From Thermoleophilia bacterium (lineage in GTDB: Bacteria > Actinomycetota > Thermoleophilia > UBA2241), in assembly GCA_016933475.1 (NCBI GenBank), contig JAFGAW010000027.1:403-64402 (forward strand): DNA of 64,000 nucleotides. The letters run 5' to 3'. The position numbers and the translations under genes are program-made. The notes beneath the pieces were generated by a model that searched no databases, was not told the DNA's origin, and was given only the letters and a program-made list of their open reading frames with translations. Numbering within the stretch: position 1 is the stretch's first letter; each line of letters begins with the position of its first letter. Below are positions 3,947 to 16,211 of the stretch, one piece after another.

Positions 3947-4010
3947 GACCGGCGCGGCCGATCAAGACCGGCGTGTCCGGCTGAGACCGGCGCGGCAGAC
4001 CTCCGCCCGC

Positions 4011-5333
4011 TCAGAGATCGGCTCTGGCGAGCGCGACGGCGATCTGGTCCTGGGCCCGGCGGGCGCGGTAGACGTCGACCGGGTCGCCGTTCATCAGCAT
4101 CGCGACGAACACCTGGTGGCCGTCGGCGCTCTGCACGCAGCCCGAGAGACAGCACGAGATGCGCAGCGTCCCCGTCTTGCCGCGGAAGTCGCCCGCCGCC
4201 GCCGTCCCGCGCAGGCGCGTGGCCAGCGTCCCGTCGACGCCGGCGATCGCCAGTGAGGCCCTGAAGGTCGCCCAGTCCTCCCGCAGGCGCATCGCCCGCA
4301 GCAGGCGCACGACCCCCTTCGCGCTCAGCCGGTCGAGGTAGCAGAGCCCCGAGCCGTCGTAGAGGCGGTAGGCATCGTCCGGCACGCCGAGGGCGGCGAG
4401 GGTCTCGCGCGCCACCCGCAGGCCGGCCGCCGTGGAGCCCACGCCGTAGACATCGCGCCCGAGACCCTTGAGCAGCATCTCGGCGAAGAAGTTGTCGCTG
4501 TCCTTGTTCAGGACCTTCAGCAGCGTGGCGAGAGGCGCCGAGTACACGGTGTGCATGCGGCGCGCCCCCTCCGGGACCTTGCCGGCCCGCGCCGCGCCGA
4601 CGACGTCGATCCCGGCGCGCTCGAGCAGCGTCCTGAAACGCCGGGCGACGTACAGCGGCGGGTCGTCGACGCGCTCGCCGGCATACCAGTTCTCGTTCAG
4701 CGACAGGGCCGACAGGGGCCCGCACTCGATCCGGAGGTGCGGGCTCCAGCTCGAGACCACGCGCCGCGCGTCGAACCAGGTGGCGTCGCCGAAGACGCGC
4801 CCCTGGATCTTCCTGACGCCGAGGCTCTTGAGGTAGGCGACGAACTCCTGGATCGCACCGGTCTTGATGCCGTACGCCTCGCGCTGGTACGTCAGGGTGG
4901 AAAAGGCCGGGTCCCCATAGCCTTTGAGGTAGACGTCGCCATAGATCGTGCGCTGGCCCGGCTTCAGGGGCAGGGTGAAGAAGAGCGAGGTGGGGAAGCG
5001 GTGGTCGGCCGGCCAGGTGACGAGCGCGGCCGAGCTCGTCACGAGCTTCATGTTGGACGCCGGTGCGAGGAGCGCGCCGCTGTTCCAGCCGTAGAGGGGC
5101 GCGCCGGTCGTCCGGTCGTAGACTGAGACCCCGGTGCGCGAGGTCGCGACGCCGTTGTCGCGCAGGATCGCGCTGATGCGCCGGCTGATGGTGCTCGCAC
5201 CCGCGCTCGCCGGCAGGGCCGCCGCGAGCAGGGTGACCAGCAGGAAGAGGGCGAGGACGGCGGCCGCGAAGCGGCGCGGCCCCGCCGGCCGCGGGCAGTG
5301 AGGGTCGAGCCGCTGTCGTCTGCTCATGATCAT
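4011..5333 (-). CDS. D-alanyl-D-alanine carboxypeptidase/endopeptidase, PBP4 (S13) family, secreted
   Basis: N-terminal signal/TM segment; SNMKL (SxxK) and KTGTL motifs typical of DacB/PBP4; start taken at the internal ATG (MIMSRRQRL) rather than the longest ORF. Confidence 0.75.
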   Translation of the reverse strand: MIMSRRQRLDPHCPRPAGPRRFAAAVLALFLLVTLLAAALPASAGASTISRRISAILRDNGVATSRTGVSVYDRTTGAPLYGWNSGALLAPASNMKLVTSSAALVTWPADHRFPTSLFFTLPLKPGQRTIYGDVYLKGYGDPAFSTLTYQREAYGIKTGAIQEFVAYLKSLGVRKIQGRVFGDATWFDARRVVSSWSPHLRIECGPLSALSLNENWYAGERVDDPPLYVARRFRTLLERAGIDVVGAARAGKVPEGARRMHTVYSAPLATLLKVLNKDSDNFFAEMLLKGLGRDVYGVGSTAAGLRVARETLAALGVPDDAYRLYDGSGLCYLDRLSAKGVVRLLRAMRLREDWATFRASLAIAGVDGTLATRLRGTAAAGDFRGKTGTLRISCCLSGCVQSADGHQVFVAMLMNGDPVDVYRARRAQDQIAVALARADL

Positions 5334-5464
5334 GGCCTCTCGCGAGGTATCGGCCGGGGCGGTGACTGTCGTGAGTCTTCGCGGCCGCACCGCGGTCCGC
5401 CTGCCGGGTACAATGGGCGGGCGACCCCGTCGCCCTTCGGCGGCGGGGCTGTCCGCGTGCCACG

Positions 5465-8400
5465 ATGCTGCTTCAGGACCTTCTGCAGAGCGAGAGCCTC
5501 ACGACGGCCGCGCCGCGGCTGCGCCGCGGCGCGGCCGTCTACGCGCCGACCTTCTTCGCGCCCTACGTGCTCGCCGGCCTCATCGCCGCCGAGGGCGGCG
5601 GGCGGCTCGTGGTCGCGCCCGACGCCGAGGCCGCGGCGGCGCTGGCCGCCGAGCTCGGCGTCTACCTCGAACGCGAGGTCCCGGTGCTGCCGGCGCGCGG
5701 CGTGCTCTACGGCGCCGACGTGGCGCCGGCGCCGCACGTCGTCGGCCAGCGCCAGCAGGCGCTGGCCGCGCTCGGCGCCGGCGGGGTCGTCGTCGCCGAC
5801 TGCGTCGCCGCGCTGGAGCGCTTCCTGCCCCTCGACCTGCAACCCGAGCCCTTGTCTCTTGTCGTCGGCGAGGAGACGCCGTTCGATCTGACGGTCGAGC
5901 GTCTCGTCGCGCTCGGCTACGGGCGCGTCGAGCAGGTCCGCGGCCGCGGCGAGTTCGCCGTCCGCGGCGGTCTCGTCGACGTCTACCCCTCCATCGGCGA
6001 GCCCCTGCGCGTCGAGTTCTGGGGCGACGAGGTCGAGCGCCTGCGCACCTTCTCGGTGTACTCCCAGCGCACGGCGGCGGAGGTCGCCGAGGCGACCGTG
6101 TACGCGGCCTTCGAGGCCGACACCGCCGGCGACGACTTCCAAGGCGCGGTGCGGCAGGTCGAGGCGGCGTGGGAGGACGAGGGCCGCGACGAGGCGCCCG
6201 ACGACGTCGTCCGCCGCGCCGAGGTGCGCGCCCTCGCCGGCCTGGCCGGGCGCTTCACGACTCTCGCCGAGTGCGCCGCCGGGGCGGGGCTGTCGCTCAT
6301 CGTCCTGCGGCCCGACGAGACCTGGCGCGCGCTCGCCGACTTCGCCGCCGAGGTCGACCTCGTCTTCGGTGCGCCGACGCGTGAGCGCGGCGGGGCGGCC
6401 GGCGCCGCGACGGGCGCTCCACCCGCCGCCCGCGACCGTCTTTACGTGCCGCTCCCCGAGACGCGTGCCCTGCTCGCCCGTGGCCTGCAGCTCGAGGTCG
6501 TGCGCCGCGAGCAGGCGATCGAGCTCGCCGCCAGCCGGCCGCAGTTCGCCGCCCGCGACCTGGGCGGCGCCGAGCGCGACCTCGCCCGGCTCGTCAACGA
6601 CGGCTACCGCGTCTACGTCGTCTTCCGCCACGACGGCGAGGCGCAGCGCGCCGCCTACCGGCTGCGCCACCTGACCGCCGAGGTCCTCGAAGCCGGGGAG
6701 GCCGGGCGGGCGGAGCCGGCTGCGCCCGGCCTCTACTTCCTCGCCGCGCCGCTGCGCGAGGGCTTCGTCTCCGCGGATCTGAAGCTCGCCGTGATCCCGG
6801 AGCGCTCGCTCCTCCGGGGGCCCTCCCGTGAGCGGCGCTTCGTCGGCGGCACGCGCCTCGCCAGCTTCTTCGACGTGCGCCCCGGCGACTACGTGGTCCA
6901 CGAGGACCACGGCATCGCCCGCTTCGCCGGGGTCGAGACGCGCACCGTGGCCGGCATCACCCGCGACTACCTCCTGCTGCAGTTCAGGGGCGACGACCGC
7001 GTCTTCGTCCCCCACGAGCAGATCGGCAAGGTCAGCCGCTACATCGGCGCCGGGGCCGGCGCCCCGCCGCTCAACAAGCTCGGCGGCACCGCCTGGCTGG
7101 CGGTCAAGACGCGGGCCCGCAAGGCGGTCGTCGAGATGGCCGGCGAGCTGCTCCAGCTCTACGCCTCGCGTCAGGCGGTGCCCGGCTTCGCCTACCCGGC
7201 CGACGGCGACCTCACGCGGCGCCTCGAGGAGTCGTTCCCCTTCGAGGAGACCGAGGACCAGGCCGAGGCCATCGACGAGGTCAAGAACGACATGGAGGCG
7301 CCGCACCCCATGGACCGCCTCGTCTGCGGCGACGTCGGCTACGGTAAGACCGAGGTCGCCCTGCGCGCCGCCTTCAAGGCGGCCGAGGGCGGCAAGCAGA
7401 CGCTGGTGCTCGTCCCCACCACCATCCTCGCGCAGCAGCACGCCGTGACCTTCGCCGAGCGCTACGAGGACCTGCCGGTCGAGATCGGGATGGTCTCGCG
7501 GTTCCGCACCAAGGCCGAGCAGCGCGACGTCCTCACGCGCTTCGAGAAGGGCGACGTCGACGTGCTCATCGGCACCCACCGGCTGCTCTCGACCGACGTG
7601 CGCCCCAAGGACCTGGGGCTCGTGGTCGTCGACGAGGAGCAGCGCTTCGGCGTGCGCCAGAAGGAGCTGCTCCGTCACCTCAAGCTGCAGACCGACGTGC
7701 TCAGCATGAGCGCGACGCCGATCCCGCGCACCCTGCAGATGTCGCTCTCCGGCATCCGTGACATCTCCGTCATCGAGACGCCGCCCCGTGGCCGCCATGA
7801 GGTGCGCACCTACATCGGCGAGTACAGGGACGACCTCGTGCGCGCCGCGATCGAGAAGGAGCTCGCCCGCGGCGGCCAGGTCTTCTACCTGCACAACCGC
7901 GTCGAGACCATCGAGGAGGCGGCCGAGCACGTGCAGGAGCTGGCGCCGAAGGCGCGCCTGCTCGTGGCCCACGGCCAGCTGCACGAGCGCGCCCTCGAGA
8001 AGGTCATGCTCGCCTTCCTCGCCGGCGAGGCCGACGTGCTGGTCACGACCTCGATCATCGAGAGCGGCATCGACATCCCCAGCGCCAACACGCTGATCGT
8101 CGAGCGCGCCGACATGCTCGGCTTGGCGCAGCTCTACCAGATCCGCGGGCGCATCGGGCGCAGCGACGCCTACGCCTACGCCTACCTGCTCTACCCGAGC
8201 GAGGAGATGTTGACCACCGAGGCGGCGGCCCGCCTGACGACCCTGAGCGACCACACCGAGCTCGGCGCCGGCTTCCGCATCGCCATGGCCGACCTCGAGA
8301 TCCGCGGGGCCGGCAACCTGCTCGGCGACGAGCAGTCGGGGCACGTGGCCGCGGTCGGCTTCGAGATGTACGCGCAGATGCTCGAGGAGGCGGTCGCCGA

Positions 8401-10018: not shown

Positions 10019-11293
10019 GTGGGCCTGACCTTCGTGTACATCGGCGCCGCCGCCGGCGCCGTGCCCGCAGCCTCGCTCCGGGCCCTTGCCGGCGGCGGCG
10101 CCGTCTTCGTCCCGGCCGGCCTCGACGACGAGCTCCGCGCCGCGATCGGCGAGGCCGCGGGCCCGGCGGAGGGCCGGCTGTTCGACGTCGATGCCGCTGA
10201 CGCCGCGGCGCTCGACGAGATCGCGGCCGCCGCGGCCGCCGGGCCCGTCTCCGTGGTCCTCGCCGGGCCGCAGGCGCCGCGGCTCGCCCGCGCCCTGCGG
10301 GCGCGCGCGGCCGCGGCGGCGCCGGCCCTCGAGACGGCAACCGTCCCCGCCGGCCCCGCCTTCGACGACCTGCTCCTGGGTCAGGAGCTGGTCTCCCTCA
10401 AGCGCATCGTCGACGTGCTCCGCGTCGAGTGCCCCTGGGACCGCGAGCAGACGGCGGGCGACATCGTCTCGTACACGCTCGAGGAGACCTACGAGCTCGT
10501 CGACGCCGTTGCCCGCGACGATCTCGCCGACGTGCACGGCGAGCTCGGCGACCTGCTGCTGCAGGTCGTGATCCTCGCCATGATGCAGGCCGAGCGCGAG
10601 GCCGGCGACCTGGGCAGCGTCACCCACGACATCGTCGCCAAACTGATCCGTCGCCACCCGCACATCTTCGCCGACGCCCGGGCCGACACGGCCGCCGAGG
10701 TCAAGGGCCGCTGGGAGCAGATCAAGCGCGAGCAGGAGGGCCGCGAGGGCGTCTTCCACGACGTCCCCGCCGCTCTGCCCGCCCTCCTCCGCGCGCAGAA
10801 GCTCCAGCAGCGTGCGGCGGCCGTCGGCTTCGACTGGCCGTCGGCAGCGGCCGCCTTCCCCAAGGTCGCCGAGGAGCACGAGGAGCTCGCGGAGCTCTTC
10901 GCCGAGGCGGCCGGTGCGGGCGGCCCGACCGCCGCCTCATCCGATGCCGCGGCCAGTGCGGGCGGCACGACGGCCGCCTCACCTGACGGCGCGGCCTCCG
11001 CAGCTGCTGCCGTGGACCCCGGCGCTCCCGACCCGAGCCGCCACGACCCCCGCGTGCGTCACGAGGTCGGCGACCTGCTCTTCGCCGTCGTCAATGTGGC
11101 CCGCCTCCTGCACGTCGACCCCGAGCTGGCGCTCCGTGAGGCGGCCGACCGCTTCGAACGCCGGGTCACCGCCGCGGCTGCTCTCGCCGCTGCGGAGGGC
11201 GTCGAGTGGGCCGCTGCGGAGCTCGAGATCCAGGAGTCGTACTACCAGCGCGCCAAGGCGGCACAGGAGAGCGGCGGTACCCCCGCCGGTTGA
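10019..11293 (+). CDS. mazG: Nucleoside triphosphate pyrophosphohydrolase MazG, with a ~120 aa Ala-rich N-terminal extension
   Basis: First MazG core CPWDREQT...ETYEL...ELGDLLLQV; second MazG repeat EVGDLLFAVVNVARLLHVDPELAL...FERR; a low-complexity linker separates the two. Confidence 0.75.
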   Translation: MGLTFVYIGAAAGAVPAASLRALAGGGAVFVPAGLDDELRAAIGEAAGPAEGRLFDVDAADAAALDEIAAAAAAGPVSVVLAGPQAPRLARALRARAAAAAPALETATVPAGPAFDDLLLGQELVSLKRIVDVLRVECPWDREQTAGDIVSYTLEETYELVDAVARDDLADVHGELGDLLLQVVILAMMQAEREAGDLGSVTHDIVAKLIRRHPHIFADARADTAAEVKGRWEQIKREQEGREGVFHDVPAALPALLRAQKLQQRAAAVGFDWPSAAAAFPKVAEEHEELAELFAEAAGAGGPTAASSDAAASAGGTTAASPDGAASAAAAVDPGAPDPSRHDPRVRHEVGDLLFAVVNVARLLHVDPELALREAADRFERRVTAAAALAAAEGVEWAAAELEIQESYYQRAKAAQESGGTPAG

Positions 11294-11404: not shown

Positions 11405-12142
11405 TCAGCCGGGCCAGGTGCCCGCGAAGTTCTTCACGCTGCGCAGGGGAGCCTCCTGCTCGTCGCCCTTCGGCTCGGCGGCGAAGCGGTGGTTCCTCTT
11501 GCGCAGGTACTCGGCGAGGCCGTCACGCTCGGCCTCGAGCGTCGCGAGGTGCTTCCCGACCAAGGCATCGACGACGACGTCGTCCACGTCTCGTGTCAAG
11601 GCGATGACCAGGTGAGGTCGGCAGAGCAGACCGGGGGACGCCGCATACTCGGCGCGGAACGCGTCGTCGGCGAGCGCCTCGAGCAAGGTGCGGAGCTTGC
11701 GCTCGGTGGCTTCGTCGGCCGCCTCGCAGAGCCGGCAACGGGTGCGCGCACGTAGCGCGGCGACGACCTTCTGTGCGCGCCGGCCGCGCTTCCCCCCGGG
11801 CGCGGCCGACGTCAGCGCCTCGATGTCGTCGCGCACGAGGTCGCTCATGACGTCGGCGACCCCCGCCAGGTTGTAGATCTGGCCGCTGGCGGCGTCGAAG
11901 AGCATGCGGAAGTGACGCCGGCAGAACCCCTTCGAGGCGCGCAGCTTCTTGCGCAGGCCCACATCGGTCAACCCCTCGTAGGCGAGCCAGTGCAGCCGCG
12001 CACGCTCCTGTTCGTCGAGGACGGTGCACAGAGGGCACTCAGAGCGCTGCGCCGTGCGCACGGCGTCGCGCAGCTTCGTGCCGTGCGGGTCGCCCGAGGT
12101 GCGCCGCTCGCTCGCGTACTTCTCGAAGTCCAGCAGTCCCAT
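11405..12142 (-). CDS. Hypothetical helical protein with two CPxC...CxxH modules (paralogue B), downstream of the dynamin-like GTPase
   Basis: 245 aa; modules ECPLC-x39-CRRH and CRLC-x37-CRPH; no recognisable catalytic motifs; lies 47 nt after paralogue A on the same strand. Confidence 0.5.
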   Translation of the reverse strand: MGLLDFEKYASERRTSGDPHGTKLRDAVRTAQRSECPLCTVLDEQERARLHWLAYEGLTDVGLRKKLRASKGFCRRHFRMLFDAASGQIYNLAGVADVMSDLVRDDIEALTSAAPGGKRGRRAQKVVAALRARTRCRLCEAADEATERKLRTLLEALADDAFRAEYAASPGLLCRPHLVIALTRDVDDVVVDALVGKHLATLEAERDGLAEYLRKRNHRFAAEPKGDEQEAPLRSVKNFAGTWPG

Positions 12143-12189
12143 GCGATCTCCTGCTCCTCGGTCTCCCGTTCCCGCGGCGTCCGGCCGGG

Positions 12190-12867
12190 TCAGGTCGTGT
12201 GGTCTTCTCCGGAGAGCGCGGCGACGGCGGCCCGCCAGCTCTCGCGCTCCTCCGGGGACGGTTCGTCGGTCACGTGCATGTGGTGTGTCCTCAGGTAGCC
12301 GTCGAGATGCTCGACAAGACGCCTCATCTGCCCGCGCTGTACCTCGCGCAGCGACGCTCTCACCGCGTCGGTCATCTCCTCACTCCAGACGAGGCGGAAG
12401 TGCGGCAGGCAGAGGCCCTGCTCGCGCGCCGCGAAGCGGTGCGCGAGCTCCTCCTCGGCCAGGCCGCCGGCGAGCTGCAGCGCGCGGCTCGTCTGCAGGG
12501 AGGCGAGCGTCGTGCAGATGGGGCACGACGCGCCGCCCGTCGCGGGCTCGGGGCGAGAGGCGGTGCGCCGCTTCGTGGACGGGGTCTCCAGGGAGTCGAG
12601 CGCCTCCTGGAGCAGGGGGCGTGCGAGGCTCGCATTGATGAGGCCGTCTCGCCAGGTCTCCTCCTCGAGGTGCTGAAGCGCCCAGGCGTGGCTCCGGCAG
12701 AAGCCTCCGGCGCGCGCGAGCCGGCCCAGCAGTCTGGCGTTCGAGGAGCCCTCGCGGAGCAACGTGCGAAGGGCGCGGTCCTCGTCCTCGTGGGCGAGCC
12801 GGCAGAGGGGACAGCCCGGCAAGGCAAGGACGCGCAGCACCTCGACCTTCTGCAGGCGGTCCAGCAT
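12190..12867 (-). CDS. Hypothetical helical protein with two CPxC...CxxH modules (paralogue A)
   Basis: Start placed at the internal ATG (MLDRLQKVEV) to avoid overlap with the upstream GTPase; modules GCPLC-x38-CRSH and CPIC-x38-CLPH; clear pairwise similarity to 11405-12142. Confidence 0.5.
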   Translation of the reverse strand: MLDRLQKVEVLRVLALPGCPLCRLAHEDEDRALRTLLREGSSNARLLGRLARAGGFCRSHAWALQHLEEETWRDGLINASLARPLLQEALDSLETPSTKRRTASRPEPATGGASCPICTTLASLQTSRALQLAGGLAEEELAHRFAAREQGLCLPHFRLVWSEEMTDAVRASLREVQRGQMRRLVEHLDGYLRTHHMHVTDEPSPEERESWRAAVAALSGEDHTT

Positions 12868-12910
12868 CAGTCGCCGAAGCCGTGGCGTCGTGCGGCGGCG
12901 CGCGGCATCG

Positions 12911-14686
12911 TCAGCCGCCGCCGACGAGGATCGCCCGTGCAGCCCGGATGCTCTCCAGTTCCGCGGAGGCCTGGCGGCGTGCGCTCTCGGCCTCGCCGGC
13001 GGCCAGCCTTCGCTGCTCCAGCCCTCGCGCGACGGCGCCGTCGATGGAGCGCGCAATCCCGTCGAGCTGCTCGTGACCCTCGCGACGGACCCGGAGAGCG
13101 GCTTCGCGGAGACCGGCGGCGAGCTCGCTGCGCAGGCGCCCCGCGTGACGGTTGGCGAGCTCGCCGGCCCGTTCGCGGGAGCGTCGTGCGAGCAGCCGCC
13201 GCCGCAGCGGGCCCGGCACGGGTGCCTGCAGCGCCCCCGTCAGCATCTCGAGGCCGACCGGGTCGTCGCGCAGCTTGACGTCGACCGTCGGGGTGAGCTC
13301 TCCGGGTGACAAGCGCTGCGGGCGGGCGATCGTCACGCCGAGGACGCGCTCGGTGTCCCGGGTCAGCTCGACGGCGAGGCGGTCGAGAGCCTCGAGCAGG
13401 CGGGCCGCCGCGTCTCCCACACCCTCCTGCACGACGGCGGCCTCGAAGGTCGTCCGCGAGGCGAGCGCGGCGGCGATCGTCGCCGCCATGAGCTCGTCGA
13501 CGCGCTTCTCGTCGACCCGCTCGTCGCCCCGCAGGACGGGCTCGAGCGCCTCGAGCAGGTCACTCTCGAGCGCCCGGCGGAAGGCCGCGGCCCGGTCGCT
13601 CAGGGCACGCTCCACCTCCTTCACGCGGTGATCGAAGACGGCGTCCTGCTCTTCGGCAAGGCGGGTGATCGTGCCCCGGCTGGCGGTCAGCTCCTCCAAG
13701 GCGACGCCGAGTTCCTGCTCGCTGCGGCCGGCCACCTCGGCGAGCACCAGGTGCTCGGTCTCGAGCTCGTCGAGCAGGGCGAGGACGCGGCGCTCGGCGC
13801 GTGCGGCGTGCAGCGCCTCGTACCGCTCCTCGAGAAGCGCGGTCAATCGCGAGTGCAGCTCGGGTACGCCGCTCGCCGGGTCGCCGTCGAGGGCGGCCTT
13901 GGCCGACACGGCGAAGACCGGTGCGTCGCTGAGCCCGACGCCGGCCAGACGGCCGGCGACGAACGCGAGAGCCTCGGCTGCCTCGCTGCCCGAGAGGTAG
14001 TCGGTCTTGTTGAGCGCGAACAGCAGCTCGGCGCCGCGCTCGCGGAGATCGACGGCCAGCCGCTCCTCGGCCTCGGTGAGAGGCTGGTCGACCGAGAGCA
14101 CGATGAGTGCCACGTCGACCTGGGGAAGGAAGGCGAGCGTGTGGTGGCTGCCGGTCTCGAGCACCGAGCCGAGACCGGGCGTGTCGACGAGCACCGTGTG
14201 CGACGGGAGGTCGAGCTCCGGCAGCGTGATCTCGACGCGCGACAGGCCACGCCGGTTCCCCGGGTTGCCGGCCTCGGTGACGTAGTCGGCCAGGCGCTCG
14301 ACGTCGAGCGTGGTCTGCGAGCCGTCCTCGGCACAGGCCATCGAGCGCCGGGGACCCCGGCGCAACACGGTGACCACCGACGTGAGGGGGACGACGCCGA
14401 CGGGGAGGAGGCGCCGTCCGGCGAGGGCGTTGAGGAGCGTGCTCTTGCCGCGTTTGAACTCGCCGAGGGCGACGACGTACAGTCCCGCCTCGTCGACGCG
14501 CCGCCGCACGGCGTCGATCCGCTCGCGTTCGCTCTGGTCGAAGCTCCGGAGGCGCAGACGACGGAGGGCTTCGGCCGCCCGACCCGGGGCCTCGGCGGGC
14601 GGCGCCTCGGGGCTCGCGACGGTGGGCGTGTCGGGGGCGACCGGGGCCTCCTCGCCTCGTGTCGCGTGTGCCTCGGCTGGCGTCAC
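12911..14686 (-). CDS. Bacterial dynamin-like protein (large GTPase)
   Basis: G1 GEFKRGKST, G3 DTPGLGS and G4 NKTD motifs with dynamin-like spacing; ~590 aa with a long helical stalk region; GTG start. Confidence 0.75.
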   Translation of the reverse strand: MTPAEAHATRGEEAPVAPDTPTVASPEAPPAEAPGRAAEALRRLRLRSFDQSERERIDAVRRRVDEAGLYVVALGEFKRGKSTLLNALAGRRLLPVGVVPLTSVVTVLRRGPRRSMACAEDGSQTTLDVERLADYVTEAGNPGNRRGLSRVEITLPELDLPSHTVLVDTPGLGSVLETGSHHTLAFLPQVDVALIVLSVDQPLTEAEERLAVDLRERGAELLFALNKTDYLSGSEAAEALAFVAGRLAGVGLSDAPVFAVSAKAALDGDPASGVPELHSRLTALLEERYEALHAARAERRVLALLDELETEHLVLAEVAGRSEQELGVALEELTASRGTITRLAEEQDAVFDHRVKEVERALSDRAAAFRRALESDLLEALEPVLRGDERVDEKRVDELMAATIAAALASRTTFEAAVVQEGVGDAAARLLEALDRLAVELTRDTERVLGVTIARPQRLSPGELTPTVDVKLRDDPVGLEMLTGALQAPVPGPLRRRLLARRSRERAGELANRHAGRLRSELAAGLREAALRVRREGHEQLDGIARSIDGAVARGLEQRRLAAGEAESARRQASAELESIRAARAILVGGG

Positions 14687-14825
14687 ATCCCTCTCCTCAC
14701 GAAAAAAGCTCCTGCCCGGTCGGTTCGGACAGAAGCCATCAGCGCCTCAGCGCGGTTCGCGAGCTTCATCGCGTGGAAAGCACTTTACCACGGGCTCGCC
14801 GAGAGCGTCGAGCGGACTGCTGTAG

Positions 14826-16211
<1,386 letters not shown>

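Follow-up and report, generated by a model that had tools for sequence, protein, structure and literature searches.

Bacterial dynamins are thought to be mostly heterotypic pairs of dynamins, and what the second subunit contributes to such a pair is an open question. Known bacterial dynamin-like proteins (BDLPs) are heterotypic pairs produced from genes that lie side by side in operons (PMC6104087). What, then, serves as the partner when the gene that directly follows a BDLP gene does not encode another dynamin? This question is raised by an operon in a 64,000-nucleotide (nt) stretch of DNA from a Thermoleophilia bacterium of the phylum Actinomycetota (assembly GCA_016933475.1, contig JAFGAW010000027.1, positions 403 to 64,402 of the forward strand), hereafter called the window. 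The operon comprises one BDLP gene and two genes for small, mutually related cysteine-rich proteins, which we call DUF6062-A and DUF6062-B. The BDLP itself is ordinary; what appears to be new is its pairing with a large, unstudied family of helical Cys3His proteins, including instances where the GTPase is fused to DUF6062.

The reading that we favor, with moderate confidence, is that both DUF6062 proteins serve the BDLP of their operon as partner subunits without GTPase function; binding, metal identity and function are inferred in this reading. A preliminary description of the locus had suggested that the small proteins are metal-dependent adaptors or regulators of the dynamin. Co-occurrence in genomes, gene adjacency and GTPase-DUF6062 fusions make an adaptor or regulator of a membrane-remodeling GTPase a reasonable reading, but the family proves not to be dynamin-specific. 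For bacterial dynamins, whose partners known so far are second dynamins, DUF6062 probably constitutes a partner of a new, non-GTPase type, and no report of a BDLP-DUF6062 partnership was found in the literature searched. If the reading is correct, a conserved, metal-binding partner that lacks GTPase function and in some cases forms a single chain with the GTPase would offer a testable handle on the role of the second subunit, and would give a function to an unstudied Pfam family.

Two DUF6062 paralogs follow a dynamin gene

The three genes of the operon are co-directional on the minus strand, with the short spacers noted in the preliminary description and borne out by the coordinates of the open reading frames (ORFs). 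The BDLP gene (12911..14686; 591 amino acids (aa), GTG start at 14686) is separated by 43 nt (12868..12910) from the gene for DUF6062-A (12190..12867; 225 aa, ATG start at 12867), which in turn is separated by 47 nt (12143..12189) from the gene for DUF6062-B (11405..12142; 245 aa). We found no intrinsic terminator between the three genes. In the source metagenome run, one contig of 3,291 nt covers positions 11775-15065, which indicates that the gene arrangement is real and not an assembly artifact. Metatranscriptome contigs overlap no more than fragments of the three genes. Because the operons of known BDLP pairs place the two genes side by side, a partner gene directly after the BDLP gene fits the established pattern.

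Both small proteins had been thought to belong to no assignable family. Instead, each matches the Pfam family DUF6062 (PF19538), with E values of 1.6e-8 for DUF6062-A (34.7 bits) and 4.9e-15 for DUF6062-B (56 bits), where the gathering cut-off of the family is 27 bits. The identification of DUF6062-A is also backed by its paralogy with DUF6062-B, to which it is 24% identical across 207 aa (E=1e-9); for DUF6062-B, the evidence further comprises its predicted structure and residue conservation. The earlier view of two mutually similar helical proteins of 226 and 245 aa thus holds in substance, although the first is 225 aa long.

Each protein carries two copies of a cysteine- and histidine-containing module: GCPLC/CRSH and CPIC/CLPH in DUF6062-A, and ECPLC/CRRH and CRLC/CRPH in DUF6062-B (C36/C39 with C74/H77, and C136/C139 with C174/H177). 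These four motif pairs are exactly as first listed, but the spacing, given earlier as x37-41, is CxxC-x34-CxxH in both proteins. An AlphaFold2 (AF2) model of DUF6062-B built from an 18-sequence alignment is all-helical (mean predicted local distance difference test score, pLDDT, 84; predicted template modeling score, pTM, 0.77) and has every CxxC and CxxH in the first turn, at the N-terminus, of a helix. Module 1 aligns weakly with module 2 (28% over 109 aa), and the predicted helix pattern is identical in the two halves of the protein, which supports an internal duplication. Of the two duplications proposed originally, that of the gene is confirmed, and the one within it is supported by this weak repeat and by the helix pattern.

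Several better-known zinc-binding families were considered and rejected, in agreement with the initial impression. A ZAS anti-sigma zinc domain does not fit because the motif is CxxC...CxxH rather than HxxxCxxC and there is no sigma factor gene in the neighborhood. Zinc ribbon and rubredoxin folds, which are units of about 50 aa with beta-hairpin knuckles and a CxxC...CxxC motif, are at odds with the all-helical prediction, and Pfam yields nothing beyond noise below its thresholds. Likewise, neither the motif nor the predicted helical fold fits HypA.

Putative metal ligands are conserved throughout a large family

A DUF6062 profile built from 21 diverse members retrieves 5,901 proteins at E<1e-3 from 1.84 billion representatives. 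We found no paper that mentions the family. The eight cysteines and histidines are invariant in 18 close homologs and invariant or nearly so in the 21 diverse members. In 224 DUF6062 domains taken from 150 diverse members of the retrieved set, conservation of the eight ligand positions is practically complete among the domains that align there: C174 and H177 are present in 223 of 223 domains and C74 and H77 in 211 of 212, and C136 and C139 are near-absolute as well. A lack of conservation in orthologs had been named beforehand as a possible refutation of the preliminary description; the residues proved to be conserved across the 224 domains. Such strict conservation implies that the fold or the activity of the protein depends on these residues, for which the simplest role is that of metal ligands. 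As judged from these alignments, each DUF6062 domain has two putative Cys3His metal sites, most likely for zinc.

No solved structure with the DUF6062 fold was found, either by Foldseek against the Protein Data Bank (PDB) or by VIA-align against approximately 48,000 PDB representatives (best Z score 4.9). A profile scan of the PDB gave a weak match (E=5e-4) to zinc-binding paralogs of ribosomal protein bS18, represented by Mycobacterium smegmatis 5V93 chain r, which have the motif CxxC-x33-CxxH. Hidden Markov models of both DUF6062 modules (approximately residues 20-115 and 118-220 of DUF6062-B) score bS18 above all 500 shuffled sequences. These C+ paralogs of bS18 carry their motif on a small helical unit and resemble DUF6062 in the arrangement of the putative ligands. 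However, bS18 is a ribosomal protein with a length of about 80 aa. DUF6062 domains, by contrast, combine two modules and are linked to dynamins, and the likeness may be convergent. A bS18-like zinc module in DUF6062 is possibly a sign of a distant relationship or of convergence, and we treat the match as a lead rather than as proof.

The GTPase is a bacterial dynamin-like protein

The first gene of the operon had been described as encoding a bacterial dynamin-like protein of roughly 590 aa with G1 (GEFKRGKST), G3 (DTPG) and G4 (NKTD) motifs. All three motifs are present (G1 at residues 75-83), and the description is confirmed by a match of residues 71-226 to Pfam Dynamin_N (E=4.3e-20) and by comparison of folds. 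The protein also matches the NCBIfam model DynmDynABac with an E value of 5.7e-14, which is under the cut-off of that model. In the AF2 model (pLDDT 81), a GTPase domain (residues 69-260) is followed by a long helical stalk and paddle region (residues 274-589). The top Foldseek matches of this model are the Nostoc BDLP (2J69, E=8.4e-19), IniA (6J72) and Cj-DLP1/2 (5OXF and 5OWV), and mitofusins are also matched. By its predicted fold, the window protein is a canonical BDLP. The N-terminal region of about 50 aa (residues 1-50) is rich in proline and alanine, is disordered in the model and is missing from most homologs.

No second BDLP gene was found in the operon, and the other Dynamin_N matches in the genome are weak and lie elsewhere. 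One such match is on contig C136 of G000 (locus L122), where a plus-strand ORF at 1078-2361 (427 aa) resembles BDLPs with an E value of 2e-12. This ORF is a candidate for another dynamin-like gene, either divergent or broken.

DUF6062 genes recur beside and within dynamin genes

The association of DUF6062 with dynamins extends well beyond the window. In a sample of 401 genomes from the same phylum, with BDLPs counted at E<1e-20 to the window protein, 16 genomes encode DUF6062 and 34 encode a BDLP, and 11 encode both. Within this single phylum, the two thus co-occur far more often than chance would predict (odds ratio 34.6; p=1e-9 in a Fisher test). The two genes lie within approximately 3.5 kb of each other in eight of the 11 genomes that have both, and are on different contigs in the other three.

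We also defined the BDLP clade by its G1 motif, GEFKRGK[TS][TS], which is encoded by 537 GTDB representatives, and took 80 loci of the clade with 6 kb of flanking sequence on each. DUF6062 is present within 6 kb of the BDLP gene at 15 of these loci, whose hosts belong to the Actinomycetota, Myxococcota, Desulfobacterota and Gammaproteobacteria. The linkage to dynamin-like genes anticipated in the preliminary description is thus found both within the phylum and beyond it. On a tree of 81 BDLPs, the DUF6062-linked dynamins are scattered, with 14 label changes (18 of 500 shuffles gave as few). This scatter points to repeated gains or losses rather than to a single clade. At some loci, small conserved proteins are encoded between the dynamin and DUF6062 genes, and these match no family in Pfam or NCBIfam. 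A search of the genome contigs for related loci with DUF6062-B as a single query confirmed no relative.

The tie also takes the form of fusions. A 540-aa protein encoded on the minus strand (3959-5581) of locus L042, from a gammaproteobacterial metagenome-assembled genome (JASHTA010000458), joins a BDLP GTPase (Dynamin_N, residues 52-210) to a DUF6062 domain (residues 335-535) in which both Cys3His modules are intact (CSIC...CGRH and CRLC...CLPH). This gene lies head-to-head with a standalone BDLP gene. The ESM Atlas holds a cluster of 637-aa proteins from Acidobacteriota annotated as a DUF6062/Dynamin fusion, as well as dynamin clusters of about 550 aa that resemble the L042 fusion. A word-based homolog search for longer proteins recovered no long fused DUF6062 forms, which is weak evidence.

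A second type of fusion joins DUF6062 domains to each other. Three loci (L032, L037 and L068) encode proteins of 471-526 aa that carry two DUF6062 domains in tandem and, with them, four CxxC...CxxH modules. Proteins of this type with lengths of 450-520 aa dominate the top representatives of the profile search. These tandem proteins mirror the two separate paralogs of the window operon.

How specific is the tie to dynamins?

Several observations weigh against a dedicated role for DUF6062 with dynamins. The family is far more common than the BDLP clade (about 5,900 representative clusters), and it is present in complete genomes that encode no confident BDLP (G065, G136 and G197). Conversely, 65 of the 80 BDLP loci have no nearby DUF6062 gene, although some of these loci are short and a few genes may have been missed. 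Genes for MFS_1 transporters, Na+/H+ exchangers (CPA1), BacA, a phosphoesterase and His_Phos_1 phosphatases recur beside DUF6062 (loci L024, L026, L031, L033 and L030, and also in BDLP-free genomes). The existence of DUF6062 proteins without a BDLP and beside transporters indicates that their function is not dynamin-specific. In addition, one ESM Atlas cluster of DUF6062 is mostly archaeal (Thermoproteota), which shows that the family is not restricted to bacteria or to genomes that carry a BDLP. The tie between DUF6062 and dynamins is real but not obligatory. From the sequence comparisons, DUF6062 is a general, membrane-associated, putative metal-binding module that has been repeatedly recruited to BDLP systems, and is not a dedicated dynamin subunit. 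A complex prediction for BDLP residues 50-591 with DUF6062-B and four zinc ions gave an ipSAE score of 0.00 in both runs, a result that counts neither for nor against binding.

Given this breadth, DUF6062 could have a job in membrane homeostasis that is independent of dynamins, for example as a metal-binding helper of transporters, and its adjacency to BDLP genes could reflect membrane-stress gene islands that both happen to share. The wide distribution of the family and its transporter and phosphatase neighbors would both be accommodated by this explanation. We nevertheless regard it as improbable, because fusions of DUF6062 to a BDLP GTPase exist and because its adjacency to a single BDLP clade is strong and recurs in different phyla, more than hitchhiking in an island would produce. 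Unlikely too, if slightly less so, is that DUF6062 proteins act as metal or redox sensors, such that the state of the Cys3His sites (zinc or Fe-S) under oxidative or membrane stress gates the assembly of the BDLP or its recruitment to the membrane. Zinc-thiolate switches operate in anti-sigma factors and in Hsp33, and cysteines at helix N-termini, where the model places those of DUF6062, are typically reactive. The presence of two invariant Cys3His sites in each domain is consistent with such a sensor. Membrane stress, antibiotics and phage all elicit responses from known BDLPs (PMC8844932, PMC12998192). However, there is no redox-type motif in DUF6062 and no sigma factor or regulator gene is adjacent, and direct fusion to the GTPase suggests a structural or domain role over that of a diffusible regulator.

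A further alternative is that the BDLP and DUF6062 together form an anti-phage or anti-toxin defense module, like Bacillus DynA or the Leo-type dynamins. Some BDLPs do act in phage defense (PMC8844932), and PADLOC weakly matches the window BDLP to LeoA (E=1.2e-6) and to LeoBC. Yet the genes around the operon are core housekeeping genes rather than a defense island, and PADLOC has no model for DUF6062. We therefore consider a defense function very improbable here, and return to the reading in which the DUF6062 proteins are partner subunits of the BDLP.

A possible role for DUF6062 as a second subunit

If DUF6062 proteins are partners of the BDLP, how might they work? Each domain would be an all-helical unit made of two repeated modules, in each of which the CxxC that opens one helix and the CxxH that opens a different helix probably close one Cys3His site. 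The metal would most likely be a structural Zn(II) ion, with an Fe-S cluster as the alternative. The domain would then probably attach to the BDLP, standing in for a second dynamin or for the helical paddle of the dynamin itself, and supply a module that contacts the membrane or other partners during membrane remodeling or repair. In the window, the BDLP and the two paralogs would be co-transcribed and would assemble into a heterocomplex of one BDLP with two DUF6062 paralogs. In some other bacteria, the equivalent unit is a BDLP GTPase fused directly to DUF6062, which takes the position of the stalk and paddle.

Extended to the whole family, this proposal would make DUF6062 a widespread, hitherto unrecognized and zinc-stabilized class of non-GTPase second subunits that can replace the second dynamin. 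It would do so either as separate proteins (one or two paralogs) or as a domain that is fused to a BDLP GTPase where the stalk and paddle would otherwise be, and would supply membrane or partner contacts for membrane repair or remodeling. We advance this broader version tentatively, as a plausible idea whose chances are somewhat below even.

Comparison with known bacterial dynamins

The closest parallel is Cj-DLP1/Cj-DLP2 of Campylobacter jejuni (5OWV/5OXF; PMC6104087), for which a BDLP and its partner are also adjacent in an operon, and whose fold is matched by that of the window BDLP. Those two proteins are obligate partners that form a membrane-tethering heterocomplex (PMC6104087). In contrast to the second dynamin of that pair, the candidate partner in the window is a small, helical non-GTPase protein with two putative Cys3His sites, and is present as two paralogs. 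More generally, the operons of heterotypic pairs such as Cj-DLP1/2, DynA/DynB and IniA/IniC encode a second dynamin-like GTPase, in place of which the window operon encodes DUF6062.

The BDLP of Nostoc punctiforme (2J68/2J69) and IniA/IniC belong to the same fold class as the window BDLP, with a GTPase domain and a long helical stalk and paddle. The Nostoc protein acts alone and Mycobacterium IniA/IniC is a pair of dynamins; neither has a cysteine-rich partner of the kind proposed for the window BDLP. The partners of a pair can also be fused or encoded in tandem, as exemplified by Bacillus subtilis DynA (fused) and Streptomyces DynA/DynB, and the L042 GTPase-DUF6062 fusion parallels DynA in this respect. 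However, both halves of B. subtilis DynA are GTPases, whereas the partner domain of the L042 fusion is a DUF6062 helical Cys3His module.

Genomic setting of the operon

The operon is embedded among core housekeeping genes, which in order are glmU, prs, ctc/L25, mfd and mazG, then the operon, followed by eno, a gene for a tetratricopeptide repeat (TPR)/zinc-ribbon protein, the pyruvate kinase gene pyk, divIC and ppx. The mazG gene (10019-11293, plus strand) is tail-to-tail with the end of the operon. At the other end, the enolase gene eno (14928-16211, plus strand; identified with Pfam) is head-to-head with the start of the operon, as the divergent orientation given in the preliminary description requires. 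The intergenic region between the two (14687..14927) was found by a terminator scan to contain a terminator-like GC hairpin on the minus strand at 14737-14707, upstream of the dynamin start.

Proximity to enolase is a recurrent feature of this BDLP clade, whether DUF6062 is present or absent, and spans several phyla. BDLP genes lie within approximately 6 kb of an enolase gene at about nine of the 80 loci, where approximately 0.3% would be expected by chance (enolase-near loci: L030, L078, L098, L076, L060, L055, L052, L045, L086 and L091). The hosts include Actinomycetota, Pseudomonadota, Desulfobacterota and Dormibacterota. A literature search on dynamin-enolase neighborhoods returned nothing relevant. 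The orientation of the genes varies: in G166 a DUF6062 operon is tail-to-tail with eno, and in the window the BDLP gene is head-to-head with it. This proximity may represent a conserved gene neighborhood or an insertion hotspot.

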